IMG/VR virus record: IMGVR_UViG_3300031787_000017
Strand: one strand, 5' to 3'
From: an uncultured virus (IMG/VR IMGVR_UViG_3300031787_000017)
Lineage: Duplodnaviria; Heunggongvirae; Uroviricota; Caudoviricetes
Length of the DNA: 64,000 nucleotides
Part shown: positions 16,970 to 40,629 of the stretch, in pieces
Numbering within the stretch: the first letter of the stretch is position 1
Layout: the number at the start of each line of letters is the position of its first letter
Program-made: the position numbers and the translations under genes
Notes under the pieces: generated by a model
Databases searched by the model: none
What the model was told of the DNA's origin: nothing
What the model saw: the letters and a program-made list of their open reading frames with translations, nothing else

Positions 16970-17284
16970 CTAAACAGAAAAACTACTTCCGCAACCACAA
17001 GTTGTTTGTGCATTAGGATTTTCTATTGTAAAGGTATGGCCCATAATATCTTCTTTGAAATTCAAAGTTGCAGAACTTAAATATTGCATACTAAAAGAAT
17101 CTACAAGAATAGAAAATCCATCAAGAGGAATTTCAAAATCATCTTCAGAAAGTTCTTCTTCAAAGTCGAATCCATATCTAAATCCAGAGCATCCTCCACC
17201 CTCAACGTAGACTCGCAAGTACTTATTTTCTTCATCTAAATATTGTTTAATTTCGTTGATCGCAGACTCGGTTACATTTAACAT
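16970..17284 (-). CDS. erpA: A-type Fe-S cluster carrier (ErpA/IscA/HesB family)
   Basis: LRVYVEGGGCSGFRYGF and NPNAQTTCGCGSSF contain all three conserved Cys; strong GGAGG RBS. Confidence 0.92.
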   Translation of the reverse strand: MLNVTESAINEIKQYLDEENKYLRVYVEGGGCSGFRYGFDFEEELSEDDFEIPLDGFSILVDSFSMQYLSSATLNFKEDIMGHTFTIENPNAQTTCGCGSSFSV

Positions 17285-17318
17285 TAATACCTCCTATTAA
17301 TACCTATATTTATTTTGC

Positions 17319-17876
17319 ATGGAAAAGACTATTTTAATGATACACACGATTCAAGATAAACTCTTGAATCATCGATTGGAAGATTACATTTTAACATTTG
17401 ATGACGGTCTTTACAACCATTTTTATTACTATCCAAAAATTAAAAAACTAAAAACAGAAAAAATATTTTTTATTTCAACAGATATTATTTGTGACGGTAA
17501 ACAATCCAAACTTTTTATTAATTCAGAAGAATGCCACAAAAAAGCTTATATGGGTAATAAAGAAAATTTTATGACATTAGAACAGATAAAATATTTATCC
17601 GAAGAAAAAAATGTTTTCATTGGAGGACATTCACATTTTCATAAAAATTTAAATTTGTTTTCTAACTTAAACGACACAATAAGTCATATTAAAAAAGACA
17701 CTGAACTTATGTTAGAGTGGTTTCATAAAAAACTAAATTTATTTCCAAATAAGTTTTGTTTTCCTTATAATGATGACTTAAATGGATTATATAAATCGAT
17801 ATTGAAAACTTATGGTATTAATCAATTTTATGGAAAAGAAAGACTCGCAATAGAAAATATTAATTTGTCAAGTTGA
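17319..17876 (+). CDS. Polysaccharide deacetylase (CE4/NodB-like)
   Basis: ILTFDDG motif 1, GGHSHFH metal-binding motif and FCFPYN motif. Confidence 0.82.
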   Translation: MEKTILMIHTIQDKLLNHRLEDYILTFDDGLYNHFYYYPKIKKLKTEKIFFISTDIICDGKQSKLFINSEECHKKAYMGNKENFMTLEQIKYLSEEKNVFIGGHSHFHKNLNLFSNLNDTISHIKKDTELMLEWFHKKLNLFPNKFCFPYNDDLNGLYKSILKTYGINQFYGKERLAIENINLSS

Positions 17877-18444
17877 GTTTTGATGACAACATTTTGAAAT
17901 AGATGTCCGATCTAAATTCATTTTGCCAAACTTTCTTTTCATTTTCATCAAAAGAAAAACCATGATTAAGTTTTATGGGCGCAAAATCTAAATCAATAAA
18001 ACTTAATTCTTCTTTATACTCTATTATATTGTGAAGATTTAGAGATACATATCCCCAACCACATTTGACTGAATGATCCACTAACTTTTTTATATATTTT
18101 AAAAATTTTACTTGATTGGTACTTTTGAGATTTTGATCTACGAGTTTTCCTCTATAAGTAGAGTAACCACAACAAATACCATTGTCATAAATGAATTCAT
18201 GAAATGCAGGCACAGTCTCTTGAGTTATTAAACCCGTATGATAAATAGACATTTCTTTCATACCTAACCATTGTAAATTTAGTCCGTCTAAAATATAATA
18301 ACCTAAAGAAGTTCTTGAATAATATGAAATATTATTTATTATTTTGTAATAAAAGTTATTATCATAGTATAAGGTAGCTTTTAAGTTATTACCCACATTT
18401 TCAATTTTTTTTAAATGTGAAAGATTTATATTCTCTAGAATCAT
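17860..18444 (-). CDS. Hypothetical protein, possibly a degenerate protein-kinase-like fold
   Basis: 194-aa ORF; YYKII, YVSLNLHNII and SFIDLDF fall in the order of the kinase Lys strand, catalytic loop and DFG-like motif. Confidence 0.45.
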   Translation of the reverse strand: MILENINLSHLKKIENVGNNLKATLYYDNNFYYKIINNISYYSRTSLGYYILDGLNLQWLGMKEMSIYHTGLITQETVPAFHEFIYDNGICCGYSTYRGKLVDQNLKSTNQVKFLKYIKKLVDHSVKCGWGYVSLNLHNIIEYKEELSFIDLDFAPIKLNHGFSFDENEKKVWQNEFRSDIYFKMLSSKLNLTN

Positions 18445-18474
18445 AACAGATACGTTAAAATTTAAAATAAATTT

Positions 18475-19119
18475 ATGCCACTACTTTTTGAAAATCCAAA
18501 ATCAACTTTTATACACATTCCTAAAAATGCCGGAAATAGTTTCGAATCATGGGTAATTGAAAATAAAATTAAATATAAAAATGAATTCAATCACTACACT
18601 TTACAGCAATCTAAACAAATATGGCAAGATTTAGGTATAGTTTTTAGTTTTGTTAGAAATCCTTTTTCTAGAACCGTAAGCATTTTTCATTATTTAGGTC
18701 AAAATGCGGAAAGAAAAATTAAAGAAAAAAAATCAATCAACTTAATAGATGATTTGAAAACTGTAAAATTATACAAAAAAGGTTTTGATTATTGGTTAAA
18801 TTGTTTATTTGATACGTCTAGTGAATTTAATGAAAAGAATGAGGTTATGAGTTTTAATGGTGAAAGTAGTTGGCCTAGACGAGCACCTCAAGGATTTTGG
18901 TTTAATTGGGAAAAAATAGACTATGTAATTAAGATTGAAAAACTTAATCATGATATGGGAATATTGAAAGACATATTCAAATTAAAAAAATGCACTTTAA
19001 TACCTATTATAAATACTAGTGATCACAACGAATATAAAACTTATTATAATAATCAAAACAAAAAAATTATTCGAAGTATGTTTGAATATGACCTGAACAA
19101 TTTTAATTACGACTTTTAA
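18475..19119 (+). CDS. Sulfotransferase family 2 protein
   Basis: FIHIPKNAGNS (5'-PSB) and FSFVRNPFSRTVSIF (3'-PB) motifs; C-terminal DLNNFNYDF. Confidence 0.88.
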   Translation: MPLLFENPKSTFIHIPKNAGNSFESWVIENKIKYKNEFNHYTLQQSKQIWQDLGIVFSFVRNPFSRTVSIFHYLGQNAERKIKEKKSINLIDDLKTVKLYKKGFDYWLNCLFDTSSEFNEKNEVMSFNGESSWPRRAPQGFWFNWEKIDYVIKIEKLNHDMGILKDIFKLKKCTLIPIINTSDHNEYKTYYNNQNKKIIRSMFEYDLNNFNYDF

Positions 19120-19121
19120 AA

Positions 19122-20651
19122 ATGAATCATTGCTTATTATTTGGTGTAAATAACTATCACCGTTCTGCTGGTGCTCACAGAATAGCTTCTCAATTAAGAA
19201 CAGACGGATGGGATGCCGAAGTTATAGACTTTTCAGTTAGATGGCCTTTAGAAAAACTTCAAGAATTAGCAAAATCTAGAATTAATAAAAATACAAAATT
19301 TTTTGGTTTTTCTTTTATATTCAATAGAATTCCCCAAGAAGAAGTGGTTGTTCAATTTATGAAATGGATTAAAAAAACTTATCCAAGTATAATTTTAATT
19401 GGTGGCGGTCAAGGCCTAATGACAGAAAAGTTTTCTATTTTAGACTATTATCTGGTTGGTTATGGGGAGATAGGACTTAAAGCATTACTTTCTTATCTAT
19501 TTTCGAATGGAGAAAAACCTAACTTTGATGCTGCGTTGATATTAAAAGAGAAAAAAACAAAAACAATCAGTACATTACACAAATATCCTGCACACCCTTT
19601 TCCCGAAGCAATTATAAAATATGAGCCTAGAGATTTTTATACTGAGCATGAATTTGGTCAAATAGAATTTTCTCGCGGTTGTAAATTTAAATGTTCTTTT
19701 TGTAATTTTCCTATTTTGGGAGTTAAAGGAGATTATACGAGAGATCCAGAAAGTGTATATGAACAATTAATGTTTAATTATGATAATTATGGTATAAGAG
19801 ATTACACTATTGCAGATGAAACGTTTAATGACTATACAGAAAAGCTTACTAAATTTGCTGATGTTGTAGACAGGTTACCTTGGAAACCTTTTATGTCATC
19901 TTTCATAAGAGCAGATTTATTAGTATCAAGAAAAAAAGATAGGGAAGAATTATTACGTATGGGAGTGACTGCTCATTACTATGGTATAGAAACGTTCAAT
20001 GAAAAAGCGGGAAAATATATTGGTAAAGGTATGAATCCTGAAAAATTAAAAGAAGGAATGATTGAAGTAAAAAATTTTTTTAAAAGTCATGTAGGAAATC
20101 GTTATAAAGGAACTATTGCTTTAATTGCAGGACTTCCCGGTGAAACTTTAGAAAGCTTAGAACAAACAAAAAAATGGTTAATAAAAAACTGGAGAGATCA
20201 AGTCGTAGCACCAAATGTTTTAGAAATTCACAAACCAATACCGGGTGCAAGAAATTCTAAACTTGATGAAGAATATGAAAAATTAGGTTATCGTGAAATA
20301 GTGTTGGATGAAAAAATAATGCTAGAAAAAATAAAAATGATAATCCACCATGATAACTTCGACATTAAAGTTGGAGATTCAGAAGGTTTTTCTTGGGAAA
20401 ATAATGATATGAGTATATATGATGCTATACGTTGGACAGCAGAAATTGAAAAAGAAGTCTATGAAATTGGAGGAATTGATTTAAAAAAACCAGCTGCTCT
20501 TAAATTAGCTCAAATGTATTGTGACGAAAAAGGAAATGTTTTACCTTTAGACGATAAATTATCATTAACATCGGTTTACCATGAAGATGCATTAGGTTCT
20601 AATTTTCAAATTTTTGTTGATAAATATATAGAAAAAAAATTAAGTATTTAA
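19122..20651 (+). CDS. Cobalamin-binding radical SAM protein (class B methyltransferase-like)
   Basis: N-terminal B12-binding-like domain (GAHRIASQLR..GWDAEVIDF...IGGG); EFSRGCKFKCSFC; ADETF; YGIET; IAGLPGET. Confidence 0.85.
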   Translation: MNHCLLFGVNNYHRSAGAHRIASQLRTDGWDAEVIDFSVRWPLEKLQELAKSRINKNTKFFGFSFIFNRIPQEEVVVQFMKWIKKTYPSIILIGGGQGLMTEKFSILDYYLVGYGEIGLKALLSYLFSNGEKPNFDAALILKEKKTKTISTLHKYPAHPFPEAIIKYEPRDFYTEHEFGQIEFSRGCKFKCSFCNFPILGVKGDYTRDPESVYEQLMFNYDNYGIRDYTIADETFNDYTEKLTKFADVVDRLPWKPFMSSFIRADLLVSRKKDREELLRMGVTAHYYGIETFNEKAGKYIGKGMNPEKLKEGMIEVKNFFKSHVGNRYKGTIALIAGLPGETLESLEQTKKWLIKNWRDQVVAPNVLEIHKPIPGARNSKLDEEYEKLGYREIVLDEKIMLEKIKMIIHHDNFDIKVGDSEGFSWENNDMSIYDAIRWTAEIEKEVYEIGGIDLKKPAALKLAQMYCDEKGNVLPLDDKLSLTSVYHEDALGSNFQIFVDKYIEKKLSI

Positions 20652-21292
20652 TCTCTAGAAAAAATGAGTTGAAAAGCTTCAGCGTATTTTACTCCAACTT
20701 GAACACCTCTAAACTTTGATCGTATTTCCATCGACTCCACGCTGCGAGCATCTGGATACTCATAGATTTCTGTTGAATATAAATTTAAAACTCGTTTTTT
20801 TAAGTCTATAAAATTAGATACATCCACATATGTATTAGGTTCAAATTTAGAAACAATCTGAGAAAAAGACCAATCACTACTTGCTGGCATTTCTGAAAAA
20901 TAAAGTTTTTTTACTGTAGAATTTAGTTTAGGGCGGCATGCCACCATACATGATTGTGAAACTATTCTATGGTCCTTGTGTAAATCACCTATACTGTGTG
21001 TATAAACTATTTCGGGTTTAAAATTATTTACAATATTTTCAACTAAACTTTTAGTTTCTGGTAAAGACAATAAACAGTCGGAAAAGTTATATATTTCTGA
21101 TCTAGCACCCAACAAATCACAAGCTTGTTTAAAAGATTTTTTTCTTTCGTAAGAAACTTGTTCATTTCCAGGTCTACTACCATCACATAGTGATACAACT
21201 AAAGTTTCATTTTTCAAAGATGTTTTAGCTATAGTTCCTGCCGGTCCATAACTTTCATCATCTGGATGGGCAAATAAAAAAAGTGTTCTCAT
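20648..21292 (-). CDS. PIG-L/LmbE family N-acetyl sugar deacetylase
   Basis: AHPDDESYG and YTHSIGDLHKDH motifs; ends with AEAF. Confidence 0.92.
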   Translation of the reverse strand: MRTLFLFAHPDDESYGPAGTIAKTSLKNETLVVSLCDGSRPGNEQVSYERKKSFKQACDLLGARSEIYNFSDCLLSLPETKSLVENIVNNFKPEIVYTHSIGDLHKDHRIVSQSCMVACRPKLNSTVKKLYFSEMPASSDWSFSQIVSKFEPNTYVDVSNFIDLKKRVLNLYSTEIYEYPDARSVESMEIRSKFRGVQVGVKYAEAFQLIFSRD

Positions 21293-22212
21293 AACATATC
21301 TCTAATAATGTCATCTATATTTTTAGATGGTGAATAATTAATATATTTTTTAATTTTTGTTAAATCTGGAATCCTAACTTTTATGTCACCGTGATTTTTA
21401 GAAAAAGCGTTTTCATAAGGTACGTGAATTATCTTACTTTTGGAGTTTGTTATTTCTATTACTCTTTTTGCTAAATCGTCGATTGTCATAGGAATATCAT
21501 TGCCTATATTGAATAATTCTCCTTGGATTGAAGATACTTTAATTAAAGAATTTAATGCATCATCTATATGACAAAAACATCTTATTTGTTGTCCTGTCCC
21601 ATATACTATTAAATCTTCATTCGATTTAGCAGCCTGTACAAATTTTGGAAGGACCATACCGTAATCTGCCAATTGGCCGGGACCTACAACATTAAAAAAT
21701 CGAACTATCGTATATGGAAAATTACTAGCTCGAATCATAAACTCCATCATAAGTTTACTGGTAGCGTAACCCCACCGAAGTTTACTACTAGGACCTATGT
21801 TAGCATTTGATTCTTCTGAAAATGGACCTTCTCCATACACCTCACTTGTACTAGAAAATACAACATGCCTTTTAACTTTTTCAAATAGTGGTAAGAGTTT
21901 ATTATTTAATTCAATATTATTAAAAAGTGTTTCAGATGGATATTTGTCGATATATTCAACACCAACACTACCGGCTAAATGAAATATCCTATGATTTTTC
22001 CTAAAAAGTCTCAGTAAATCATTATCATCCATTTTTATAATATCAGCTTCAATAAATTCAAACAAATTTTTATATTCTGAAAAGTCATCTAAATTTATAC
22101 TAGAGGTTTTTAAATTGTCAATAATAGTAACACGTTCTTGTCTTGTTTTTAATAGTTTATGTGTTAAATTTTGACCAATAAAACCAGCACCACCTAAAAT
22201 AATATTATTCAT
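21289..22212 (-). CDS. NAD-dependent nucleotide-sugar epimerase/dehydratase (extended SDR)
   Basis: GGAGFIG, HLAG, SSTSEVYG, YATSK (YxxxK), RFFNVVGP, RCFCHIDD. Confidence 0.92.
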   Translation of the reverse strand: MNNIILGGAGFIGQNLTHKLLKTRQERVTIIDNLKTSSINLDDFSEYKNLFEFIEADIIKMDDNDLLRLFRKNHRIFHLAGSVGVEYIDKYPSETLFNNIELNNKLLPLFEKVKRHVVFSSTSEVYGEGPFSEESNANIGPSSKLRWGYATSKLMMEFMIRASNFPYTIVRFFNVVGPGQLADYGMVLPKFVQAAKSNEDLIVYGTGQQIRCFCHIDDALNSLIKVSSIQGELFNIGNDIPMTIDDLAKRVIEITNSKSKIIHVPYENAFSKNHGDIKVRIPDLTKIKKYINYSPSKNIDDIIRDML

Positions 22213-22903
22213 AAATTATATCATCAAATAAAATATACAAATATAAATTTGAATTTATGTCATCAATTCCATGCAACCAATTTCTAGAATTAAAATTGAT
22301 AATCATTTGTTGATTTATATTTGGTAAAAAATATTTTTTTTCTTCACCGGGAAAATTTACTCTAAGTTTCTCCCACCAATTAATAAAATCAAAAGAGTCA
22401 TTAAACCCGGACAATAAAGATTTTTTAGGCATGGTATCCATAGTATTCTCTATATACTTGAACCAAAAATATTCCTTTATTTCTTCTCTAATTAAAATAG
22501 GTACAATAAAAGTGCGGGTGTTAATGGGAACTGAGTCATCATGTATTCTATATGGATGAGTATGAGCACTAAGTTTTTTTATATTATTAATAGGTAAAGA
22601 TTTATCATTTCCTTGTATCCAACAAACGAATTGTGAGAGAGTTTTAATTTTATCTTTTTCAACTTCATCTATAAAAATTTTTAAATATGAATAAAGTTTT
22701 GTATTAATTAAAAATTCTCTAACTTCTTTTAGAGTCCCTCCAGCATTAAAATGTATTTTGAAAAGTAAATTGACTTCGTTTTCAAATCCAACTAACGCAT
22801 TTTTCTCTTTCATATTTTGTTTACAGATGTCAAATAGTAATCCAACATCACTATCCACAATTTTTAATTGTGAGGGTTTATAATCAACATTCAAATTATT
22901 CAT
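22205..22903 (-). CDS. Hypothetical protein, possibly a cupin/DSBH metalloenzyme
   Basis: 232-aa ORF in the operon; AHTHP followed distally by WLHGID suggests an HxH...H metal site. Confidence 0.45.
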   Translation of the reverse strand: MNNLNVDYKPSQLKIVDSDVGLLFDICKQNMKEKNALVGFENEVNLLFKIHFNAGGTLKEVREFLINTKLYSYLKIFIDEVEKDKIKTLSQFVCWIQGNDKSLPINNIKKLSAHTHPYRIHDDSVPINTRTFIVPILIREEIKEYFWFKYIENTMDTMPKKSLLSGFNDSFDFINWWEKLRVNFPGEEKKYFLPNINQQMIINFNSRNWLHGIDDINSNLYLYILFDDIIYE

Positions 22904-23493
22904 TTATCTAAACCCCTTTTACCTGAAGTAAAATTTTCGTAAATTTCACCTAAGGTTATTTGTTCGATCTCCAATTCTTTTAATTCTACCATACATTTAA
23001 CAACTTTATCAACGTGAGCTATATAATGAATTTTGTTAAAATCTTTAGGTTTATATGCTTTTTTATTTACACATCGTTTAATAAAACAATCGTCTTGCAT
23101 ACCTATTCCGTAGACACTTGGTATCCTATAGTTTACATAATTTCTACCAGAATATTTCAAATAAACTTCCATACTTTGTTTTGCTATATTATAACATTCT
23201 TGTGCTGTGTTGTCAACACTTAATACTCCCATACTACTGGCATTTACGAATAAAGCTGTTGAATTTATTTTTAATGCTTCTCTAGTAACATCGAATATTA
23301 TATCCATAGTTTTGGTTGGATTATTTACTATAAAATTCGTTGTGCTTGGACAAGCTAAATGGTAAATAATATCGCAATCGATTTGTCGAAAATTTCTACC
23401 TATTTCGTAGACAGTATCACCATTTTCTTCTAAAAGTTTAACTAAATTTTTACCTATAAATCCAGTAGAACCTGTAACAACAACACGTTTCAT
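22900..23493 (-). CDS. Short NAD-dependent epimerase/reductase (SDR)
   Basis: VVTGSTGFIG, IYHLA, NASS, YNIAK (YxxxK), RIPSVYG. Confidence 0.85.
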   Translation of the reverse strand: MKRVVVTGSTGFIGKNLVKLLEENGDTVYEIGRNFRQIDCDIIYHLACPSTTNFIVNNPTKTMDIIFDVTREALKINSTALFVNASSMGVLSVDNTAQECYNIAKQSMEVYLKYSGRNYVNYRIPSVYGIGMQDDCFIKRCVNKKAYKPKDFNKIHYIAHVDKVVKCMVELKELEIEQITLGEIYENFTSGKRGLDK

Positions 23494-33851: not shown

Positions 33852-34271
33852 TTATCTCCTTAAGTAAGACTCAATAATTTCATTAACACTTTTCTCATCA
33901 TTTAAATCTGGTAAAACTTTTAATTTATCAATTATATTATAAAATTCGTCTTTTTTTTCTTGTAATTGTTTAATTGAATCCATAAGGTTGATATATTTTT
34001 CCAACTTATTAATAAGTTCAACATCGCCTGTTTCTATAATTTTGATATAAACTTCTTCTCTAAGTTCTTCGGTTATGATGTATCCCTTTGAAGCCAGTTC
34101 ATTGTTAATAGTCATAAAACTGACGAAATCCAATAATTTAAACGTCAAAAGTTCATCACCAAAAATTCCTCTAGCTTTTGTTTTACATGCTAGAGCAGCT
34201 TTACCCGCATAAGTATTCGCGTCTATACCTTCAATTTCAACTCGTTTTTCTTCCATAAAATTTATCTCCAC
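33852..34271 (-). CDS. Hypothetical helical protein
   Basis: 139-aa ORF directly downstream of the Cys-repeat gene; the true start may be the ATG a few codons in (MEEK), which follows GGAGA. Confidence 0.7.
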   Translation of the reverse strand: MEINFMEEKRVEIEGIDANTYAGKAALACKTKARGIFGDELLTFKLLDFVSFMTINNELASKGYIITEELREEVYIKIIETGDVELINKLEKYINLMDSIKQLQEKKDEFYNIIDKLKVLPDLNDEKSVNEIIESYLRR

Positions 34272-34280
34272 TATTAATAA

Positions 34281-35207
34281 TTATTTAATCTCAAAAGGAA
34301 GTTCAGAATAATTAACCATATAAAAACCATTTTTGGTCATATAAACAGCATTAGAATATTTTGTTTTTAGAAGTTCTTGGGCCATAACACCGACAAAAGT
34401 CTCATTACTCCAAATATAAGAAAAACTGTAAACATTAATTCCAAAAATATTCTTCAAATATTTAATATTCCTTTTCAATCGTCTGTCACTATAATTACAA
34501 TTGCATGTGCAAGAATAATTGCAGTTACATGTACAATAATTACAGTTACATGTACAATAATTACAGTTACATAAACATACTGCGCCAGCATCTTTTACTT
34601 TTTTAATTAAAGCATTAATGTCTGTCGCACTTATTCTAGTTGATAGTTGTGCGTTATTAGTGGTAGATATACCGGCAAATCCAGTAACAAAACCTGCTAC
34701 CGAAATTGCAGGACCTCGGTCTACTTGTGGATTAGTAGTATTTGGTCCACCCCAGAGTTCAACACCACCAAAAGCTACAAATTGAGTGCCGTTAGGAAAA
34801 ATTCGTTGCGTTAATTGAGAACCCGAACTTACAACACTTTCTCCTCCGGATGACGATGTAGTTATGAGACCAAATGTCCTAGCTCCCGTTCTCTCTATCG
34901 AGGCTTTTAAATTATTTATTTGGGACGATGTTATGGAAGTGCCGGAACTGACAGTTGATCCTGACGGTGCAGAAAGTCCTCGCCTAGTACATTCAGACGC
35001 ATAAGCGGTTCTAATAGCATTTATTGATGCAGCCCCAATTAACGATCCTGCTGTAACATCAGTCAAAGAATAAGTTGTAGCAACTGCAGCGCCATTATAA
35101 ACGTTTGCTTTTACTATGTAGGTTCCACTAGCATCGTTGTCAGGGTTGTAACCCTTTGCATGACCAGAGGAAGCAGGAGGTCTTTTTTTGGAAGATGAAT
35201 ACGGCAT
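34281..35207 (-). CDS. Virion-like protein with a Cys-rich (CxCNCNY)x4 tract and C-terminal peptidase S74 intramolecular chaperone
   Basis: S/T/G/A-rich N-terminal region; CLCNCNY-CTCNCNY-CTCNCNY-S-CTCNCNY directly followed by SDRRLKRNI...GVMAQEL...VNYSEL, the S74 chaperone signature. Confidence 0.85.
   Translation of the reverse strand: MPYSSSKKRPPASSGHAKGYNPDNDASGTYIVKANVYNGAAVATTYSLTDVTAGSLIGAASINAIRTAYASECTRRGLSAPSGSTVSSGTSITSSQINNLKASIERTGARTFGLITTSSSGGESVVSSGSQLTQRIFPNGTQFVAFGGVELWGGPNTTNPQVDRGPAISVAGFVTGFAGISTTNNAQLSTRISATDINALIKKVKDAGAVCLCNCNYCTCNCNYCTCNCNYSCTCNCNYSDRRLKRNIKYLKNIFGINVYSFSYIWSNETFVGVMAQELLKTKYSNAVYMTKNGFYMVNYSELPFEIK
34491..34577 (-). repeat. 21-bp tandem repeat encoding four CxCNCNY heptads (12 Cys in 29 aa)
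   Basis: ataattacagttacatgtaca at 34536-34556, with variants at 34515-34535, 34557-34577 and 34491-34511. Confidence 0.95.
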
Positions 35208-35208
35208 A

Positions 35209-35589
35209 TTAAATCTCTTTTGATAAGAAGTTTAAATTATCTTTAACTTTATTTTCTTCTAAAAATTTTTCATAATCATCAACATCAACAGTAGATGATA
35301 AAAAGTCCATAGTTTCTTTATCGGGTTCTTTATCTGACAAAGAATCTTCTGAAGATTCTTTAATTATATACATCACCATTTCTTCTAAAGAAAAACCTAA
35401 AATGTTAGAAACAAGATTTATTTGATCGGAAATATCTAAAGTTCCTTTAAAGTCCTCTTTAGAAATAGTTTCCAGAACATTTATTGATAGACCTAATCCA
35501 TCCAATAATACTCTACCCGCAACATTATCTTCTTCAGATATCTCACCCATAAGTCTAATTATTTCTTCTATTTTTTCAGTGGTTTTCAT
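35209..35589 (-). CDS. Acidic hypothetical protein
   Basis: 126-aa D/E-rich ORF translationally coupled between a radical SAM gene and the Cys-repeat gene. Confidence 0.7.
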   Translation of the reverse strand: MKTTEKIEEIIRLMGEISEEDNVAGRVLLDGLGLSINVLETISKEDFKGTLDISDQINLVSNILGFSLEEMVMYIIKESSEDSLSDKEPDKETMDFLSSTVDVDDYEKFLEENKVKDNLNFLSKEI

Positions 35590-36449
35590 ACCAATTCCTT
35601 TTCTTTAAAATCTCGAAATTTTGGGGAACTCTCAATATTGAAATGTGTAGTAACATTTCCTTCGTCTGTAAAATACGTTTTAATTTCTTTTCTAATACTA
35701 CATCCGTCACAAATATCACAAAATAGAGAACATACAGGCGACTGAATCTCATTATTTATCCAACTTAACCTGAGATTTTCTTTCATAGAATCTAAAAGTT
35801 TTAAGTCTTTCTCACTCAAAGTATCCCAGGCGACAGAGGTTATAAGTCTCTCCGGCCTAAAAGTTTTGATTAGTTTAGTTATATCTTCGGAAGCTCGCCT
35901 TATATTCAATTTATGAATGGTATATCTTATTCGAAACCTGAAATTATTTTCCAATAACTTCTTAAATATCTTTACCATAAATGGTGTTGATTCCATACCA
36001 TTGTGAAAAACTCTGTCTTTATTACCAACTCCATCAAAACTCACATCTATAGATAATAACTTCTTCTTATAAAAAAAATTATTTTTAGTTACGTCTATGA
36101 AATCTTGGCTTAAATATTTAATACCATTTGTTGTCATATTAAAATGAACATTCTTCTTTTTACTATAGGCATAGTCCATAGCAAAACAAACATTTTCCCA
36201 TTCTAATGTTGGCTCTCCACCAAACAATACTATAAGAGTTTGCTGACTCGGATCCTCACGTTCTAAAATTTTATCAATACTTTTTACAATATCTTCTTTA
36301 CTTAAAATTTGCGGCGGTCTTCCTGGTAAATCTTCATAGCAATACGTGCAAGCTAAGTTGCATTTATTGGTAAAATATAATACATTTACACCAGATCCAG
36401 AAACTATTGGTTTATTAGGATCTTGTATGTAAAATTGTTCTACATTCAT
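35586..36449 (-). CDS. Radical SAM protein (anSME/peptide-maturase-like, short Cys tail)
   Basis: FTNKCNLACTYC, LFGGEPTL, MTTNG, VSFDG; C-terminal CSLFCDICDGC. Confidence 0.9.
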   Translation of the reverse strand: MNVEQFYIQDPNKPIVSGSGVNVLYFTNKCNLACTYCYEDLPGRPPQILSKEDIVKSIDKILEREDPSQQTLIVLFGGEPTLEWENVCFAMDYAYSKKKNVHFNMTTNGIKYLSQDFIDVTKNNFFYKKKLLSIDVSFDGVGNKDRVFHNGMESTPFMVKIFKKLLENNFRFRIRYTIHKLNIRRASEDITKLIKTFRPERLITSVAWDTLSEKDLKLLDSMKENLRLSWINNEIQSPVCSLFCDICDGCSIRKEIKTYFTDEGNVTTHFNIESSPKFRDFKEKELV

Positions 36450-36745
36450 TGTATTATCATTTTATGAGAATTTTTATATCTATTTTCTTTTGGACGTTTT
36501 TTAGCTTCTTCAATTATGTGTCGCATGTTGTCCAAAAATTTGATATAATCTAATTTGTAATCAAATAAATGTCCGGCTTCATTATATCCAACATATTTAC
36601 TATCAACTTTAGCTTTACCTTTTCTAGCTTCTTCAATCTGCACTGATAACTCATCAACAGGAATTACTTTGTTTGATGCATGTTCAACAGGTTGCATCTC
36701 AACCTTTATTGGTATAGATAATAAACTTTTAAAATTTTTTTTCAT
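36446..36745 (-). CDS. Hypothetical protein
   Basis: 99-aa ORF with overlapping start/stop codons on both sides, between radical SAM genes. Confidence 0.65.
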   Translation of the reverse strand: MKKNFKSLLSIPIKVEMQPVEHASNKVIPVDELSVQIEEARKGKAKVDSKYVGYNEAGHLFDYKLDYIKFLDNMRHIIEEAKKRPKENRYKNSHKMIIQ

Positions 36746-37593
36746 TAAATTTCCTTAGGATACATCATAAGTCCACCTTCACAAATTTCTTTCGGACAAA
36801 TAACTTTTTTTGTAATATCTTTTAAAGATAACGGCATAATTTCATTAGTGCAAACATTTTTAACCAAATTATCCAATTCTATTTGAAAAGATTCTGGCAC
36901 ACATTTATAATCTCTAAAAGAATTTTTTTTCTCATATAATAATTTTAAATCTGTTGTTCTTTCTTCCGAACCATCATCATATAAAACATTTATATCTATC
37001 ATATCTTCAGCATTAGAAGCTTCTGTAAAAAAATCTTGATCTAAGTTATTTGTGTAATATGGAGTATCAACTAAAAAATTTAATTTAAATTTAATATTAT
37101 TAGATTTACAGTTATCAATAATATTTAAAATATAGTTTTTATACTCTGGCATCATACTTATATGAACTTCACAATTTAGATTTTTACACTTTTTTAAAAA
37201 ATCCTCTTTGTGATATTCTGGATGAAAAGATGCATAATACTTAACTTTTGAAAAACTTTTTATACTTTTATAAAAAGTTTCCGATCTAGTCAAGTTGGTA
37301 AAAAAATAAATTTTTACCAAATTTTTAATTTCATTTAATCCTTCCAGTATTTCTTCAATATTTGGATGTAATGTTGGTTCACCACCAGTTAAACAAATCT
37401 CAAAAGGTTTAGAAATAGTTTTTAATCTACTTATTATTAACTTGTAACTTTGTGCAATCTGAGTCGTATCATTGTAATCATAACTTAAATTTTCCTTTAC
37501 ATTACAGTATGAACACTTCAAATTACACCAATTCAATATATGCCAGTTAATTCTAAGAATTTTATCTTGACTGGTGCAAGAAATAATTTTCAT
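36745..37593 (-). CDS. Radical SAM protein with twitch-like C-terminal Cys domain
   Basis: WCNLKCSYC, LTGGEPTLHP, FTN, ASFHPE; C-terminal FRDYKC...NVC...ICPKEIC. Confidence 0.9.
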   Translation of the reverse strand: MKIISCTSQDKILRINWHILNWCNLKCSYCNVKENLSYDYNDTTQIAQSYKLIISRLKTISKPFEICLTGGEPTLHPNIEEILEGLNEIKNLVKIYFFTNLTRSETFYKSIKSFSKVKYYASFHPEYHKEDFLKKCKNLNCEVHISMMPEYKNYILNIIDNCKSNNIKFKLNFLVDTPYYTNNLDQDFFTEASNAEDMIDINVLYDDGSEERTTDLKLLYEKKNSFRDYKCVPESFQIELDNLVKNVCTNEIMPLSLKDITKKVICPKEICEGGLMMYPKEI

Positions 37594-37594
37594 A

Positions 37595-38719
37595 TTAATT
37601 CCTACACTCTACGCCTTCATTTTCAACACCAACATTTTCAATATAATGTAATACTAAATCTTGAAAAACTGGAACATCCTTACACTCATCAACAACTCTT
37701 AAACCCTGTTCATAATATATGTGAAATAATTCACAAATACTATCCAATGGTTTATTGTCATTCATAATTTGAGAATAAGTGCATCCAGTATTACATACTT
37801 GTTTTAAATCGCAAGGTTCACATTTATCAAAACTTTTAGGATTAAATATATCTTGATAATATTTAAAATTATATTGTTCGTCCATCTTCATAATTTTTTT
37901 AGATGCAAATCTGGCGCAAGGATAAAATTCACCAGAACTCATCAAAACTCCACCATTGGTTCCTGCAAAACATCCAAATGATCTTTTTCCTTTTACTAAT
38001 CCATATAGTGTGTCCAAAATAGCTAGTCTGAGAAAGCCAACTGAACAAGCTTTACCTGATTTTAGTTTTTCTATCCAAAAATCCGCCAATCTTTCACATT
38101 CATATCTAAACTGTTTGATATCTTCTACAGTCCAAACATCATCTCGAACTATACTAAAATCGGGATGATCTATACCCCAATCTAGTAAGAATTGGAAATT
38201 CTCCGTCATATCTTTGGTATTACCTGGCCATATCATAACTTTACAACCGTTTGTTAAATCTTTTATGATTTCTTTCTTGTACTCATACATTGAAAGAATA
38301 CCATCAAATAAATCTCCAGTTTCTGGATTAGTATTTTCTAAAAGTGGTAATAAAGGTCTAGTTTCATTTGAACTCATACCATCAAAAGACCAAGAAACAC
38401 CGACACCATTTTCTTTTAAATAATGAGCTTTATTTTCATCAATCATCGTAAGATTTGTGATGATATTAATACCTTTACATTTCTTATCCGATTTCAAATA
38501 AGGAACGGCGTGAGTTATAAGATCCCAATTTAATAGTGGTTCACCACCAAAAAAACTTACATGATAATCCCTATCTCCCGATCTTTGCATCAAGTTGGGC
38601 AAATCTTTCATACCTTGATCGAAAACCTCTTTCGTCATCCAAGTTGGCCTATTTGCTACATAACAATAAGGACAACCTAGATTACATTTTTCAGTAACAC
38701 TTACCTCTAATGTAAACAT
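37595..38719 (-). CDS. Radical SAM/SPASM domain protein
   Basis: CNLGCPYC, FFGGEPLLN, SFDG; SPASM Cys set CFAG...YPCARF...CEPC...VCNTGC...IC. Confidence 0.92.
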   Translation of the reverse strand: MFTLEVSVTEKCNLGCPYCYVANRPTWMTKEVFDQGMKDLPNLMQRSGDRDYHVSFFGGEPLLNWDLITHAVPYLKSDKKCKGINIITNLTMIDENKAHYLKENGVGVSWSFDGMSSNETRPLLPLLENTNPETGDLFDGILSMYEYKKEIIKDLTNGCKVMIWPGNTKDMTENFQFLLDWGIDHPDFSIVRDDVWTVEDIKQFRYECERLADFWIEKLKSGKACSVGFLRLAILDTLYGLVKGKRSFGCFAGTNGGVLMSSGEFYPCARFASKKIMKMDEQYNFKYYQDIFNPKSFDKCEPCDLKQVCNTGCTYSQIMNDNKPLDSICELFHIYYEQGLRVVDECKDVPVFQDLVLHYIENVGVENEGVECRN

Positions 38720-38729
38720 TCTTTTATCC

Positions 38730-39836
38730 TTAAACTGTGCATTGTTCAGCCTCGATTTTAATCGTAGGCTTTTTATAACTCTTTAGTGCTGTTCTTAGAG
38801 CATGATGTACTATCTCATTCGTTTTGAATACCTTACATACCTGCCAATTAGCTGTATGATCACTCCATTTTTCTAAATAAGTTTCTTTTTCAGATTTCTC
38901 ATAAGTCGCAGCATTACACTTCATACAAAACTGACTATCGCAACTCATACAGTCTAGTGGTTGATTTTTCAATGCGTCTTTATACATCTGAGATTTTTCT
39001 TCAATCAACTGATCTAAATCTGGAACTTTAAAAATATTACCGAGTTTATGTGAATGAGATTCTTTATACATGCATCCGTGACAAGGACTTAAATCCCCAT
39101 TCAAGTCCACACTCACATAATTTATACCTGCAGCACATAGAGCTCTAGACTGTTGAAACCATCCAAATTTTTCAGGAGGTAATTTGTTATCATAAATGTG
39201 TTTAGCAATTTTTTTCAATCCATCCTTCAAAACTTCTAATCTAGGCATGAATTCTTCTTCATTCAACTGACTGTATAAGTCTGGTGTTGGAAAATAATTA
39301 TTATCCATTTCTATTACATCTAGAAATGCTTCATAAATTAAATGGAAATTATCGGATGTCAAAACAGATTTCAATGAAACATTTAGCCCAGCTTGTTTAG
39401 CTGCAATATAGTTTGCTTTAACTAAGGCTGATGATGGAGTACCAGACTTAGTTACTCTTGCGATATCATTTACTGGTTTTCCATCATATGAAACTTGTAA
39501 CTTTAGTCTACCTGGAATTTCATTATGAATTCTAACCAAATCTTTTAAATATCTTTTTAAATATGTTCCATTTGTATAGAAGAAAAAAGAAAACCCAGGA
39601 TCGTGTTTAAACTTCTCAATAACACCTTTACAAAAATCCCAATTAACAAACGGTTCGCCACCCCAAAAATAAACATCCTTTTTAGGATCAGAAATTTTAG
39701 CCATAAATTCTTCAACATTATCTAATGTCAAAGAAGTATTTTCTTCAAACTCAGTAGATAGACCACACTCAAAACCTTCGGAACAATATGTGCAAGCTAA
39801 ATTGCAAATACTTGTTACGTTTATATCTACTACCAT
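38730..39836 (-). CDS. Radical SAM/SPASM domain protein
   Basis: CNLACTYC, FWGGEPF, YTNG, VSYDG; SPASM Cys set CAAG...SPCHGC...CMSC...FCMKC...VC; AGGAG RBS. Confidence 0.92.
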   Translation of the reverse strand: MVVDINVTSICNLACTYCSEGFECGLSTEFEENTSLTLDNVEEFMAKISDPKKDVYFWGGEPFVNWDFCKGVIEKFKHDPGFSFFFYTNGTYLKRYLKDLVRIHNEIPGRLKLQVSYDGKPVNDIARVTKSGTPSSALVKANYIAAKQAGLNVSLKSVLTSDNFHLIYEAFLDVIEMDNNYFPTPDLYSQLNEEEFMPRLEVLKDGLKKIAKHIYDNKLPPEKFGWFQQSRALCAAGINYVSVDLNGDLSPCHGCMYKESHSHKLGNIFKVPDLDQLIEEKSQMYKDALKNQPLDCMSCDSQFCMKCNAATYEKSEKETYLEKWSDHTANWQVCKVFKTNEIVHHALRTALKSYKKPTIKIEAEQCTV

Positions 39837-39891
39837 TTTTTCTCCTTTTATTTTAAATCAAAGACGCACTAGTATATAGTAGTTGATAAAC

Positions 39892-40629
39892 TCAATCAAC
39901 ATTTCTGTAGTATTCGTTCAGTTCTAAAACTTTTTTAAGTAATTCTACATCATAATTTTTCACCAAACACTCGGTATCTTTTGGTAAGCAAGGACCTCCA
40001 AATCCTCTTTTTCCGTCAGGTCCAGGAACTTTAAAATGATTGGATCCCATCCAAGGATGTTTAGAAAGTATTTCGATAGCTTCCTCATAGTTTACCTCCA
40101 TCTTTTTAGCTACATCATACATTGAATTCATAAAAATAACTTTTGTTGCATAAAAAGAATTCATTGAGTATTTTATAAAAGAAGCAGTATTGATATCCGT
40201 TATGAATGTATTACTCATATCTACAGTAGAATACTTTCTATAAATTTCTAATGCTTGTTCAGATTTATTACCCGATAAAATCGTTAGAGGAGGATTTACA
40301 AAATCTTCCTTTGAAGTGGACCTTGATAAAAATTCTGGATTATATACTACGTCATATTGTTTTAAATATTGTGGTAACACAGTTGATTTGACTATGACAA
40401 CTCCTTTATAATTCATTCGTCGTATTTCATCAAGTACAGAAATCAACAAAGAATAATTAGTGTTATCTGTGGGAGTAGGAACACAAACGAAGATAGCCTC
40501 AGGATTTAATAAACAAAGGCCTTTCACCGTTACGTGATTATATTTCGGATCACAAACAAAAACTTTAGTTTTGGAAAAGCCGTATTCAACGGCTTGTCCA
40601 ACCATTCCATAACCAATAATTCCAATCAT
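39892..40629 (-). CDS. UDP-glucose/GDP-mannose dehydrogenase family protein (short form)
   Basis: GIIGYGMVG, FVCVPTP, VKSTV, YNPEFL, KYSMNSFYATK and GFGGPCLPKD (catalytic Cys). Confidence 0.92.
   Translation of the reverse strand: MIGIIGYGMVGQAVEYGFSKTKVFVCDPKYNHVTVKGLCLLNPEAIFVCVPTPTDNTNYSLLISVLDEIRRMNYKGVVIVKSTVLPQYLKQYDVVYNPEFLSRSTSKEDFVNPPLTILSGNKSEQALEIYRKYSTVDMSNTFITDINTASFIKYSMNSFYATKVIFMNSMYDVAKKMEVNYEEAIEILSKHPWMGSNHFKVPGPDGKRGFGGPCLPKDTECLVKNYDVELLKKVLELNEYYRNVD

Follow-up and report, generated by a model that had tools for sequence, protein, structure and literature searches.

The window analysed here is a stretch of 64,000 nucleotides from an uncultured virus (IMG/VR IMGVR_UViG_3300031787_000017), in which 30 ORFs at positions 16970-40629 lie between fibre-like genes (Table 1; proteins are named by the first coordinate of their ORFs). 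Radical_SAM (PF04055) scored above the Pfam cut-off in exactly nine ORFs of this 23.6-kb region, the same nine that an earlier note on the DNA had listed, and among 47 ORFs checked the CxxxCxxC motif was found in these nine and in the non-enzyme ORF 34281-35207. Because their pairwise identity does not exceed 32% (alignments of at least 100 residues), the nine radical SAM genes are no recent duplicates. The minus strand carries 27 of the 30 ORFs, overlaps make up 15 of the 29 junctions and none of the 29 gaps exceeds 55 nt, which bears out the co-orientation and overlaps described before; no intergenic terminator-like sites were seen between 43944, where the fibre gene starts, and 20648, and the cluster is embedded in baseplate and fibre genes that form a single long run on the minus strand. 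The assignment of the flanks as fibre genes is based on weak PHROG tail-fibre matches and on their position after the baseplate genes; Pfam gave no match in them. The flank gene order of 2-16920 is repeated in relatives G002 and G004.

Table 1. Features of the tail region and its flanks
Position	Strand	Feature	Basis
2-16920	-	Fibre-like flank genes (3463+, 108, 1880 and 66 aa)	PHROG tail-fibre matches
16588-16920	-	Tail-fibre-assembly-like protein	PHROG L-shaped tail-fibre-assembly match
16970-17284	-	ErpA-type A-type Fe-S cluster carrier	NCBIfam ErpA equivalog
17319-17876	+	Polysaccharide deacetylase, CE4-type	Conserved in relatives
17860-18444	-	Insert: 194-aa protein, no assigned family	
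18475-19119	+	Insert: sulfotransferase	Homologues in 2/41 lineages
19122-20651	+	Insert: radical SAM with B12-binding domain	Homologues in 2/41 lineages
20648-21292	-	PIG-L deacetylase	Pfam, NCBIfam
21289-22212	-	UDP-xylose-synthase/ArnA-like SDR	Pfam, NCBIfam
22205-22903	-	232-aa protein, no assigned family	
22900-23493	-	Short SDR	Pfam, NCBIfam
23496-23987 and 25207-25947	-	Split transketolase-like ThDP enzyme	Transketolase_N in one half
23984-25276	-	Flavin-dependent halogenase, between ThDP halves	Trp_halogenase 6e-63 (Pfam)
25965-26822	-	Accessory 285-aa protein, no assigned family	4/41 lineages
26809-27744	-	Accessory radical SAM/SPASM-like	Pfam; 3/41 lineages
27756-28571	-	U32-like TIM-barrel protein	Three invariant Cys, one nearly invariant Cys
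28580-29338	-	Small radical SAM	Pfam, PHROG; 24/41 lineages
29331-30233	-	Small radical SAM, most conserved of module B	Pfam, PHROG
30223-30894	-	Family-2 glycosyltransferase, 223 aa, soluble	Glycos_transf_2 3.6e-7 (Pfam); 28/41 lineages
30888-31883	-	Radical SAM, HxsC/SkfB-like core	Pfam, NCBIfam
31861-32739	-	GT-B fold glycosyltransferase	Predicted structure, pLDDT 92
32746-33849	-	367-aa candidate sulfotransferase (lead)	ESM Atlas features
33852-34271	-	139-aa helical protein, no family match	Always directly after target gene
34281-35207	-	Cys-repeat fibre-type protein, 308 aa, presumed target	Peptidase_S74 and repeats
34491-34577	-	Cys-repeat core, residues 211-239	Ends one residue before S74 domain
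35209-35589	-	126-aa acidic protein, no family match	Directly upstream of target gene
35586-36449	-	Radical SAM, PapB-like, one C-terminal CxxxCxxCxxC cluster	PapB 2.9e-25, under cut-off
36446-36745	-	99-aa protein, no family match	Kept between radical SAM genes
36745-37593	-	Small radical SAM, phrog_13987 type, C-terminal Cys cluster	Pfam, PHROG
37595-38719	-	Radical SAM/SPASM, PapB/CteB-like	PapB model positions 5-320 of 330, 130.8 bits
38730-39836	-	Radical SAM/SPASM, PapB-like	Radical_SAM 7e-15, SPASM 3.9e-4 (Pfam)
39892-40629	-	Short UDP-glucose/GDP-mannose dehydrogenase-like, 245 aa with just the N-terminal and central domains	UDPG_MGDP_dh 7.6e-17
40633-43944	-	Fibre-like flank gene, 1103 aa	Weak PHROG tail-fibre matches

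The AT-richness noticed previously by eye is real, with a GC content of 0.28 as compared with 0.34-0.40 in the fibre genes, and is confined wholly to codon positions 1 and 2, GC3 being uniform (stretch 0.174/0.188, fibres 0.174/0.171, baseplate genes 0.159). Related phage genomes of 200-214 kb show the entire gene order again, with the enzymes conserved at up to 97% and the fibres at 36-81%; seven of seven and eight of nine radical SAM genes of two complete relatives lie in this region. Because fibre and baseplate genes have the same GC3 and relatives preserve the gene order, the stretch, which the earlier note had termed an island, is not a foreign one. The explanation developed below, and with it this claim at the same probability, takes the stretch as a native, conserved portion of a late tail operon, the phage being T4-like and from freshwater, and as consisting of two modules and a few accessory genes.

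Module A (32746-40629) and module B (16970-32739) are separable and each is conserved. When 76 viral loci were merged into 41 lineages (flanks limited to 10 kb, some contigs cut), 29 of the 41 had the module B genes in synteny, 27 of these with the transketolase half, and even distant lineages have the module beside fibre genes. Within these 10-kb flanks, 10 of the 29 lineages with module B had no Cys-repeat ORF of module A, and 12 of the 31 with the repeat had no module B. The occurrence of the modules apart conflicts with the previous reading of a single biosynthetic gene cluster with one product, and implies that the module A protein need not be a substrate of module B. Further glycosyltransferases are encoded in lineages that have only module B, in one of which an S74-bearing fibre lies directly upstream. 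Metatranscriptome pieces were few and may stem from carried-over DNA.

For module A, the protein of 34281-35207 is the likely target, encoded among the genes of the enzymes themselves. It consists of a variable N-terminal part, four Cys-x-Cys-Asn-Tyr units and an S74 chaperone domain (residues 240-288; Pfam Peptidase_S74, 29.6 bits with the cut-off at 22), and contains 13 Cys. The repeat spacing is strict, with three Cys per seven residues; at the DNA level the 21-nt units 1 and 2 are identical and unit 3 differs at synonymous sites. Among 17 family members, 27 of the 29 invariant columns fall within the repeat region, and identity outside it is just 31-50%; proteins bearing the repeat are 200-530 aa long. 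The S74 domain starts at a Ser with a Lys five residues later, presumably its catalytic pair. Such C-terminal domains (PF13884) are shared with endosialidases and tail fibres, in which they come after a beta-helix or coiled-coil stalk, whereas here the domain follows a cysteine ladder. Also unlike that type, some natural variants end at the repeat/S74 junction and lack S74 (L022/L033), and others have a 12-residue S74 stub and a separate small ORF.

PapB was the best NCBIfam match for all three module A enzymes 37595, 35586 and 38730, with PapB-type scores (130.8, 89.2 and 77.4 bits) far under the cut-off of 340. The best family and structure matches of these enzymes are the ranthipeptide systems PapB/PapA (freyrasin) and CteB/CteA (SCIFF) (NF047865, TIGR03974; 5wgg/5why), in which radical SAM/SPASM enzymes cross-link repeated Cys motifs. 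The closest solved chain to 37595 is 5wgg (E 1.2e-17, with both the radical SAM and the SPASM part aligned); as the alignment begins at chain residue 102, the N-terminal recognition domain is absent, and no substrate-recognition domain was seen in the module A enzymes. The presumed substrates differ as well, being structural-type proteins of 200-530 aa here and peptides of ~45 aa in the PapA/CteA systems. Homologues of 35586 and 38730 lie within 10 kb of the target in 33 of 36 loci found by the target alone, and a PapB-like enzyme is present in 29 of 31 lineages having the Cys-repeat ORF; 38730 is 97% identical in the nearest relatives.

The remaining genes of module A are conserved to varying extents. 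Copies of the 36745 type in other lineages lie inside module B, adjoining a 29331-type gene. The protein 36446 (65-82% identity in relatives) occurs in 14 of 41 lineages and 33852 in 25 of 41 (27 of 36 loci), the latter giving neither a PDB sequence match nor an ESM Atlas lead; in 35209 the C-terminal end is conserved in 11 relatives. For 32746, the Atlas feature matches are sulfotransferase clusters (0.94-0.95, the best 10 all of one clan) and Arg-Asn-Pro is invariant, with Pfam matching none of 10 members. The first gene after the fibre gene, 39892, scored under the cut-off for NCBIfam NDP-sugar dehydrogenases, and its type is found in 17 of 41 lineages, always adjoining module A or the fibre C-terminal domain. 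The last ~135 residues of the fibre 40633-43944 likewise travel with module A and are directly upstream of it in at least 15 distant loci. The S74 fibre-type gene, the possible second sulfotransferase 32746 and the GT-B glycosyltransferase of module B had been overlooked earlier.

In T4 fibre tips, His-x-His repeats bind iron, and the strictly spaced Cys could by analogy hold metal ions or Fe-S clusters along the trimer axis, with the radical SAM enzymes serving otherwise. The cluster does contain an Fe-S carrier gene, which one lineage has within module A; however, such a tip would leave the PapB-like enzymes of nearly all repeat lineages unexplained, and free thiolate-metal sites would be labile in oxic lake water, so that we consider it very unlikely. 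The module A enzymes probably act directly on a protein and not via a diffusible product. The three PapB/CteB-like enzymes, probably assisted by the small partner proteins, would modify the Cys-repeat end of a small trimeric fibre-type protein, most likely turning Cys thiols into thioether cross-links; the S74 domain would then fold the trimer and cut itself off, which would make the stapled repeat the new C-terminus.

No published description of this Cys-repeat cassette was found in the literature. A precedent is CrpC, a SPASM radical SAM enzyme of Methanococcus voltae that installs ranthionine-type thioethers on the Cys-rich CrpA (Dieter et al. 2026, PMC13692751). As far as the accessible text of that paper goes, both systems have a SPASM radical SAM gene next to a gene for a Cys-rich protein and no short peptide, and phages go unmentioned. 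CrpC/CrpA is an archaeal, cellular, one-enzyme system with a different Cys grammar, whereas module A, set in the tail operon of a phage, combines three enzymes with the strict Cys-x-Cys-Asn-Tyr repeat and a presumably self-cleaving S74 domain of fibre type; the CrpC-type family TIGR04463 is not among the matches listed for the proteins of the stretch.

Module B comprises two glycosyltransferases, two SDRs, two deacetylases and four or five radical SAM enzymes, in accordance with the sugar enzymes proposed from the sequence. The A-type Fe-S carrier (134.4 bits against the ErpA equivalog cut-off of 117) and the halogenase were also correctly called; the carrier is 92-93% identical in G002 and G004 and has a 34% homologue inside module A in L005/L066. 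Two other calls held in part: of the ThDP pair, one half matches Transketolase_N (40.5 bits, cut-off 22) but its partner stays under the cut-off (20 against 27), and the U32-like protein 27756 fails by sequence (16.2 bits, cut-off 22.4) but its model (pLDDT 84.6) has the U32 peptidase 5d88 as best fold match (E 4.9e-6, TM 0.58/0.63). The Lys, Glu and WxWxIP sites of the halogenase line up with those of tryptophan halogenases of solved structure, and its alignment to the top match, 8fov, preserves the FAD, Lys and Glu motifs. It also matches the viral tryptophan-halogenase family member VirX1 of a cyanophage (6qgm, E 1.6e-35), but is ~100 residues shorter (430 as compared with 531) and wedged between the ThDP halves, an order found in many relatives, while others have the two halves without the halogenase. 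The three inserted genes (17860, 18475 and 19122) are rare or unmatched among relatives and missing at this place in G002, G003 and G004. The GT-B type 31861 is present in 32 of 41 lineages; its model aligns to PimA 2gej with a VIA-align Z of 16.2 (259 residues, rmsd 3.2), and all 50 listed chains share the fold, nearly all being sugar transferases or synthases.

LPS genes of marine cyanomyophages have been proposed to act on the envelope or metabolism of the infected cell, and the sugar genes here might similarly be auxiliary metabolic genes that reprogramme the host or remodel its surface. In PHROGs, the category 'moron, auxiliary metabolic gene and host takeover' includes the deacetylase and sulfotransferase, and a metabolic benefit was proposed for the radical SAM genes of phage CP220 (Timms et al. 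2010, PMC2853527). However, Pfam and NCBIfam searches and a crude hydropathy test found no flippase, polymerase or lipid-carrier transferase family and no membrane helix in any of the 30 proteins. Furthermore, the family of 29331 (94% identity in near relatives, 34-43% in distant ones) gave only two full-length matches in cellular genomes (one genome for each of 185,579 species), both on phage-like contigs carrying module B, and this virtual absence from cells argues against a borrowed host polysaccharide pathway. With the structural-operon position and high conservation also speaking against an accessory role, this use of the genes is improbable.

We regard as similarly improbable a natural product, either RiPP-like or of aminoglycoside or nucleoside type, released at lysis against competitors or the host. 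SPASM and B12 radical SAM enzymes, a halogenase, PIG-L with GT-B and a split transketolase are typical of secondary-metabolite clusters, and similar genes were called 'antibiotic synthesis genes' in a cyanophage paper (PMC12801897). Nevertheless, the Cys-repeat is found at the end of a protein of 200-530 aa that has a trimer-folding S74 domain, and not on a short leader-core peptide; exporter, immunity gene and protease families were unmatched in Pfam and NCBIfam, and the cluster is fixed between fibre genes.

From gene content, conservation and co-occurrence we infer a chemistry, its substrates and the presence of its product in the virion. The explanation that we favour, with a probability of about 0.5, is virion-protein maturation, in which module A staples the Cys-repeat protein and a module B sugar goes onto a virion protein; the two enzyme sets probably cross-link a small fibre-type protein and build a modified sugar. 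Module B would be a soluble nucleotide-sugar tailoring and transfer pathway of SDRs, PIG-L and CE4-type deacetylases, split transketolase, U32-like protein, radical SAM enzymes and GT-A and GT-B glycosyltransferases, to which this phage adds the halogenase and sulfotransferase(s), and the ErpA-type carrier would supply Fe-S clusters to the many cluster-dependent enzymes. The sugar would most likely be placed on the fibres or on the module A protein; since none of the 30 proteins has a predicted membrane helix, the acceptor is probably cytoplasmic. The idea that virion appendages are decorated is partly supported by the embedding in the structural run and by the likely target encoded there, but not as the work of one cluster. 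Mycobacteriophage glycosyltransferases decorate capsid and tail proteins (Freeman et al. 2023, as cited in PMC12619734), in the accessible account without the radical SAM, ThDP, halogenase or deacetylase steps of module B. If true, our explanation would represent virus-particle chemistry of a kind not yet described.

The usual entries to modified DNA are dCMP/dUMP hydroxymethylases and the TGT/DpdA and C5-methylase types, and the absence of nucleotide-modification genes noted earlier extends to two complete relatives (214 and 202 kb), neither of which has a Thymidylat_synt-family hydroxymethylase, TGT/DpdA or C5 DNA methylase (in the Tet_JBP search the control was silent). Module B, perhaps with some radical SAM enzymes, might still make a sugar or other group and put it on a base of the phage DNA against host nucleases, the Cys-repeat cassette being an unrelated neighbour; the fold matches of its GT-B model include T4 DNA alpha-glucosyltransferase (Z 13.2). 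According to the portions of the sources available, phage glycosyltransferases put diverse glycans on DNA (bioRxiv 10.1101/2023.12.21.572611) and radical SAM steps are known in thymidine hypermodification (PMC8989533). In CP220, some homologues of the present genes adjoin thymidylate synthase, ribonucleotide reductase and thymidine kinase genes: the SDR, PIG-L and polysaccharide deacetylase trio, in the same order as gp158-gp156, lies beside thyX and nrdB, and the homologue of 30888 beside a thymidine-kinase-like gene. Against this, the present cluster is within a late structural operon away from replication genes, and module B stays beside fibre genes across distant lineages, making DNA hypermodification unlikely.

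The link to CP220-type phages, drawn before as an analogy, proved to be one of real homology. The T4-like phages CP220 and CPt10 carry 11-12 radical SAM genes without an assigned role (Timms et al. 2010, PMC2853527). A tblastn search covering about 79.5 of the 177.5 kb of CP220, in three regions, gave homologues of nine proteins (17319, 20648, 21289, 23496, 25207, 28580, 30888, 35586 and 38730), for instance gp163 for 30888 (45% identity over 95% of the length), gp136 for 38730 and gp099 for 35586 (29% each), and gp072 with gp141 for the split transketolase. They are scattered over the CP220 genome, whereas here they are clustered between fibre genes. The accessible text of Timms et al. remarks on the 21-bp repeat but leaves it uninterpreted. 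The repeat of the target described here recurs in CP220 gp140 as six CDCNYCT units, with a homologous radical SAM gene 2 kb away; gp140 differs in having a long extra Cys-rich tail and no S74 domain.

The Cys-repeat protein, whose gene was absent from the list in the earlier note, is 308 residues long with 13 cysteines, and consists of a variable N-terminal part, four Cys-x-Cys-Asn-Tyr units and a C-terminal Peptidase_S74 domain (PF13884; residues 240-288, 29.6 bits against the Pfam cut-off of 22) that starts at the residue directly after the repeat end. Alignment of 17 family members puts 27 of the 29 invariant columns in the repeat region, overall identity being 31-50%. The protein of the nearest relatives (L022 and L033) stops precisely after the last unit and has no S74 domain, an ending that at most indirectly suggests self-cleavage of S74 at the repeat junction. 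In other relatives three or four tandem Cys-repeat paralogues end in an S74 stub of 12 residues, and an independent ORF of 88 aa comes next; further ones bear the complete domain, and in distant phages a six-residue repeat variant occurs with the ending unchanged. In two loci with tandem paralogues (L008 and L020) the middle parts of the copies differ and most, not all, carry the stub; the separate 88-aa ORF there looks like the remainder of the S74 domain. In L022 and L033 an ORF of 153-156 aa with hydrophobic stretches replaces S74, before the gene of the 139-aa small partner protein.

Coordinates of the features discussed (for radical SAM genes, the start position that serves as the gene's name)
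Feature	Sequence	Position	Strand
Module B (sugar tailoring)	window	16970-32739	
Module A (Cys-repeat protein and its enzymes)	window	32746-40629	
Sole copy of TATAAATA	window	19008-19015	+
Radical SAM with B12-binding domain	window	19122	+
Small radical SAM enzymes with C-terminal Cys cluster	window	26809, 28580, 29331, 36745	
Radical SAM with HxsC/SkfB-like core	window	30888	
PapB/SPASM-like enzymes	window	35586, 37595, 38730	
Halogenase	window	23984-25276	-
ORF upstream of halogenase	window	25207-25947	-
292-aa protein	window	31861-32739	
367-aa protein	window	32746-33849	
Cys-repeat protein	window	34281-35207	
Last ~135 residues of 1103-aa protein	window	40636-41040	-
2067-aa protein	window	44195-50398	-
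T4-type baseplate and tail genes (PHROGs)	window	50412-63876	
Points joined by one RNA contig	window	36287, 45553	
Tandem Cys-repeat paralogues	L008	8963-11286	
Tandem Cys-repeat paralogues	L020	8264-11094	
ORF replacing S74	L022	10489-10959	
ORF replacing S74	L033	10510-10971	
Phosphoribosyltransferase gene	CP220	163869-164282	
Phosphoribosyltransferase gene	L071	19947-20402	

For the radical SAM genes, the count of nine CxxxCxxC proteins given in the earlier note was borne out, as Radical_SAM (PF04055) exceeded the Pfam cut-off in exactly those nine ORFs (32.8-61 bits versus 29.5); among the 47 ORFs examined, the CxxxCxxC motif is present in all nine and in the Cys-repeat ORF. They share at most 32% mutual identity over alignments of at least 100 residues and fall into the four kinds of the table. 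By sequence, the three module A enzymes resemble the PapB/CteB family but lie outside it by the family threshold, scoring 130.8, 89.2 and 77.4 bits where the NCBIfam equivalog (NF047865) demands 340. A SPASM domain is recognized in 38730 (Pfam SPASM, 3.9e-4; also TIGR04085), 37595 aligns with positions 5-320 of the 330 in the PapB model and has at least seven C-terminal cysteines, and 35586 has a single C-terminal CxxxCxxCxxC cluster. All three begin at the cluster motif (residues 11-30), and the alignment of 37595 with solved chain 5wgg begins at chain residue 102. On the question of a leader-recognition (RRE) domain, the small partners of 99, 126 and 139 aa gave no family match; the 139-aa protein had no usable ESM Atlas match, and profile searches of PDB sequences with it and with the 367-aa protein returned chance-level rows only.

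The enzymes and the Cys-repeat protein occur together. A pattern search with the Cys-repeat protein alone recovered 36 viral loci, in which homologues of 35586, 38730 and 37595 lie within 10 kb in 33, 33 and 30 cases, respectively, and the 139-aa gene in 27. A profile of the 29331 family recovered 40 viral loci. Merging the 76 loci (L001-L036 and L046-L085) wherever 95% identity extended across 4 kb or more gave 41 lineages, with extension loci, CP220 annotation loci and loci from cellular-genome contigs excluded; the counts carry an ascertainment bias, as the Cys repeat served to pick the first set and the 29331 family the second. Both the Cys-repeat ORF and at least one PapB-like enzyme were found in 31 of the 41 lineages each, and together in 29, so that a PapB-like enzyme is encoded no more than 10 kb away in 29 of the 31 lineages with the repeat. 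The two repeat-only lineages are cut by a contig end or short, and one of the two enzyme-only lineages bears a degenerate repeat missed by the filter. The core set of module B (GT-B gene, 30888, GT2 and 29331; presence meaning at least three of the four) was found in 29 of the 41 lineages, accompanied by a transketolase half in 27, the long SDR in 20 and PIG-L in 18. Because a Cys-repeat ORF is missing from the covered stretch in 10 of these 29 lineages, and module B in 12 of the 31 with the repeat, the two modules are separable sets, named here module A (putative protein maturation) and module B (putative sugar tailoring). Where module B occurs alone, it is accompanied by additional radical SAM genes, glycosyltransferases of the GT8 and DXD types and a DegT aminotransferase, and one such lineage has an S74-bearing fibre directly upstream.

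In cellular genomes, sampled at one genome for each of 185,579 species, full-length matches to the 29331 family number only two, both on phage-like MAG contigs with module B. Two loci filed under an archaeal MAG (L088) and a Bdellovibrionales MAG (L089) hold module B and parts of module A, and probably derive from phages whose contigs were binned with those of cells.

The region had been described as an island clearly more AT-rich than the fibre genes. Its lower G+C is real by measurement, but the difference from the flanks is confined to codon positions 1 and 2: GC3 is 0.174 and 0.188 for the region's two halves, 0.174 and 0.171 in fibres and 0.159 in baseplate genes. With GC3 uniform, the G+C contrast reflects Ala/Gly/Ser/Thr-rich fibres and not a separate origin. 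The gene order is also syntenic in three related genomes (G002, G003 and G004) and many viral contigs, so the description as a separate island did not hold. Neither deviant codon-level composition nor patchy presence, by which a horizontally acquired genomic island would be recognized, is apparent from sequence comparison. Many viral contigs share the order from the dehydrogenase-like to the U32-like gene, and the left arm (transketolase halves, short SDR, long SDR, PIG-L, deacetylase, ErpA, fibre-assembly gene, fibres) recurs in the three related genomes and others; at the corresponding place those three genomes lack the B12 radical SAM gene, one sulfotransferase gene and the 194-aa ORF. Identity to L033 is 67-97% for the enzymes and 77% for the U32-like protein, against 41-69% for the adjacent fibre and 36% for the Cys-repeat protein. 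The pair of 26809 and a 285-aa protein is rare among the 41 lineages, and a 232-aa ORF has no homologue in the 36 Cys-repeat loci.

For module B, the 292-aa protein had neither a sequence-family match nor a PDB match by profile search. Its model (pLDDT 92) aligns to PimA with Z 16.2 over 259 of 292 residues (rmsd 3.2), and all 50 listed chains matching it have the two-Rossmann GT-B fold, nearly all being sugar transferases or synthases; module B therefore has transferases of both the GT-A and the GT-B type. Glucosamine-linked products classically arise through a GT-B transferase acting together with a PIG-L deacetylase, as in the biosynthesis of mycothiol, bacillithiol, GPI and aminoglycosides. 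The fold matches of the 292-aa protein include BshA and LmbT, and BshB1 is the best NCBIfam match of the PIG-L protein. For the 367-aa protein, assignment as a sulfotransferase stays a lead because none of 10 family members matches a Pfam sulfotransferase. The halogenase-like enzyme noticed earlier has a good family match (Pfam, 213.6 bits), and its FAD motif GxGxxG, its WxWxIP motif and its catalytic Lys and Glu all align with the solved tryptophan 5-halogenase 8fov. Its gene lies between the transketolase halves, its start overlapping the upstream ORF by 70 nt; the insertion point is the same in many relatives, others have the halves adjacent, and G004 has two halogenase copies.

The remaining accessory assignments fared unevenly. 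The A-type Fe-S carrier passes the ErpA equivalog cut-off (134.4 versus 117 bits, NCBIfam). Of the supposed ThDP enzyme pair, adjacent in most lineages, the N-terminal transketolase half is well supported (40.5 bits versus a Pfam cut-off of 22) and the second half falls short (20 versus 27). The U32-like protein is a candidate family member: its confident model best matches U32 peptidase 5d88 (TM 0.58/0.63), its sequence score falls below the Pfam cut-off (16.2 versus 22.4 bits), and a profile search gave no PDB match; C38, C176 and C180 are invariant and C207 nearly so.

The region lies among virion genes. T4-type baseplate and tail genes occupy the far end of the window, with a gp6-like wedge protein 37-43% identical to counterparts in Methylophilales, Pelagibacter and cyanobacterial myophages. 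Downstream of them on the same strand are very large Ala/Ser/Thr/Asn-rich proteins with weak tail-fibre PHROG matches, in which Pfam recognizes no family other than DUF4815. A 2067-aa protein between baseplate and fibre genes carries DUF4815 in three stretches and matches phrog_358, a family with no assigned function, very strongly (2e-298). A 1103-aa protein ends in a domain that has no Pfam family and may resemble G2-type domains; the gene directly upstream of module A ends with it in no fewer than 15 distant viral loci, and it may be another self-cleaving chaperone type. Docking of the small Cys-repeat protein on this domain was considered and abandoned because the domain may itself be a chaperone that is cleaved off. 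As the earlier note observed, the region's genes are mostly co-oriented with overlaps: 27 of 30 ORFs are on the minus strand, 15 of 29 junctions overlap, and no gap exceeds 55 nt. By a crude test, none of the 30 proteins has a membrane-helix-like stretch. An IMG/VR contig of 54.7 kb is identical across the region, related complete viral records are 214 and 202 kb with terminal repeats, and megablast against cultured phages gave zero matches.

This setting bears on whether the enzymes' products are placed on a virion protein or on the bases of phage DNA. In the two complete relatives, 7 of 7 and 8 of 9 radical SAM genes sit in the inter-fibre region, and the coding strand of the window has no intergenic terminator-like site from the start of the 1103-aa fibre gene down to 20648; both observations favour the virion reading. 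Neither relative has a thymidylate-synthase-family hydroxymethylase (PF00303), a TGT/DpdA or a C5 methylase (PF00145), and Tet_JBP (PF12851) was absent from both in a search whose control was itself silent. An entry enzyme for T4-type or TET-type DNA glycosylation appears to be lacking in these two relatives. Speaking against the virion reading, the GT-B fold of the 292-aa protein also matches a DNA glucosyltransferase, and some CP220 homologues lie amid nucleotide-metabolism genes.

Promoters give no expression timing, since the counts of late-promoter and sigma-70-like sites are uninformative. The T4 late-promoter consensus TATAAATA has one match in the window versus 15.15 expected (sd 3.49), with at least one copy in all 100 shuffles, and is strongly avoided in the late-gene region; its one occurrence precedes the B12 radical SAM gene by 107 nt. 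The numbers of sigma-70-like sites are those expected by chance (135 versus 131.4 expected, and 96 versus 91.6). Three freshwater metatranscriptome runs from three studies contain 6-7% of sampled words, and their exact short contigs place the phage in fresh water. Such contigs were found on the gene of the Cys-repeat protein, on four of the radical SAM genes and on the 126-aa gene, as well as on the dehydrogenase-like gene and the fibre-like genes, with DNA carry-over possible in all cases; they attest presence only, not level, strand or timing, and uncovered parts carry no meaning. One contig, from run X1, joins two distant points of the window, skipping 9265 bases with 33 other letters between; its shorter side has only 26 letters, and it is probably a chimera or from a relative.

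Gene content, conservation and co-occurrence are matters of direct observation, and from them a mechanism may be proposed. The PapB/CteB-like enzymes would take hydrogen from acceptor residues in or near the Cys repeat and link these to cysteine sulfur, the model for such joining being ranthipeptides and CrpA. S74 would trimerise the Cys-repeat protein and then depart, ErpA may provide Fe-S clusters, and module B would build an amino sugar, perhaps sulfated, for a cytoplasmic acceptor, most likely a virion protein. It is conceivable, at a probability of roughly one in five, that all 23.6 kb work as one assembly line devoted to a single virion protein, which would be hypermodified. Three radical SAM/SPASM enzymes would then staple a cysteine ladder by thioethers at a small trimeric fibre tip, which module B would subsequently glycosylate, de-N-acetylate, sulfate and perhaps halogenate at invariant tyrosines, yielding a fibre-sized, particle-exposed RiPP that shapes adsorption or stability.

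To our knowledge, heavy post-translational chemistry on the virus particle is almost without precedent among phages, and a search of the literature outside subscription journals found no report of radical SAM modification of a phage virion protein. If the proposal is true, widespread large aquatic phages and poultry-associated CP220-type phages harden or decorate their host-facing appendage chemically, with the chemistry of peptide antibiotics and sugar antibiotics, which would have consequences for how hosts are recognised, for the stability of the particle and for phage engineering. Phage-restricted radical SAM, U32-like and ThDP enzymes, with a putative sugar chemistry, can also be drawn from module B. 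Enzymatic cross-linking of a protein by radical SAM enzymes is not known to have been demonstrated before 2026, when it was reported for one archaeal protein (PMC13692751).

For Campylobacter CP220-type phages, the comparison drawn in the earlier note proved apt, as both homologues and a Cys repeat were found in CP220. Among 50,697 phage records, 30888 is matched only by CP220-type phages (44-47% identity), over 95% of the protein in 13 of 15 such records, and they also supply the sole near-full-length matches of 38730 (28-30%). CP220 gp140 has six CDCNYCT units, and its neighbour gp141 is a homologue of the second transketolase half (44%). Matches to the first transketolase half, 35586, 38730 and 30888 are gp072, gp099, gp136 and gp163, respectively, and gp158-gp156 repeat the order SDR, PIG-L, deacetylase. 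The presence of about ten radical SAM genes in these phages has been a puzzle since 2010 and is now directly testable; were the single assembly line real, the same chemistry would explain this long-puzzling load. In the original description, 11-12 radical SAM genes are given and a 21-bp repeat is remarked and left uninterpreted (Timms et al., PMC2853527). A phosphoribosyltransferase gene lies near the CP220 cassette, between gp139 and the radical SAM gene gp136, and another lies beside module B in a distant viral contig (L071).
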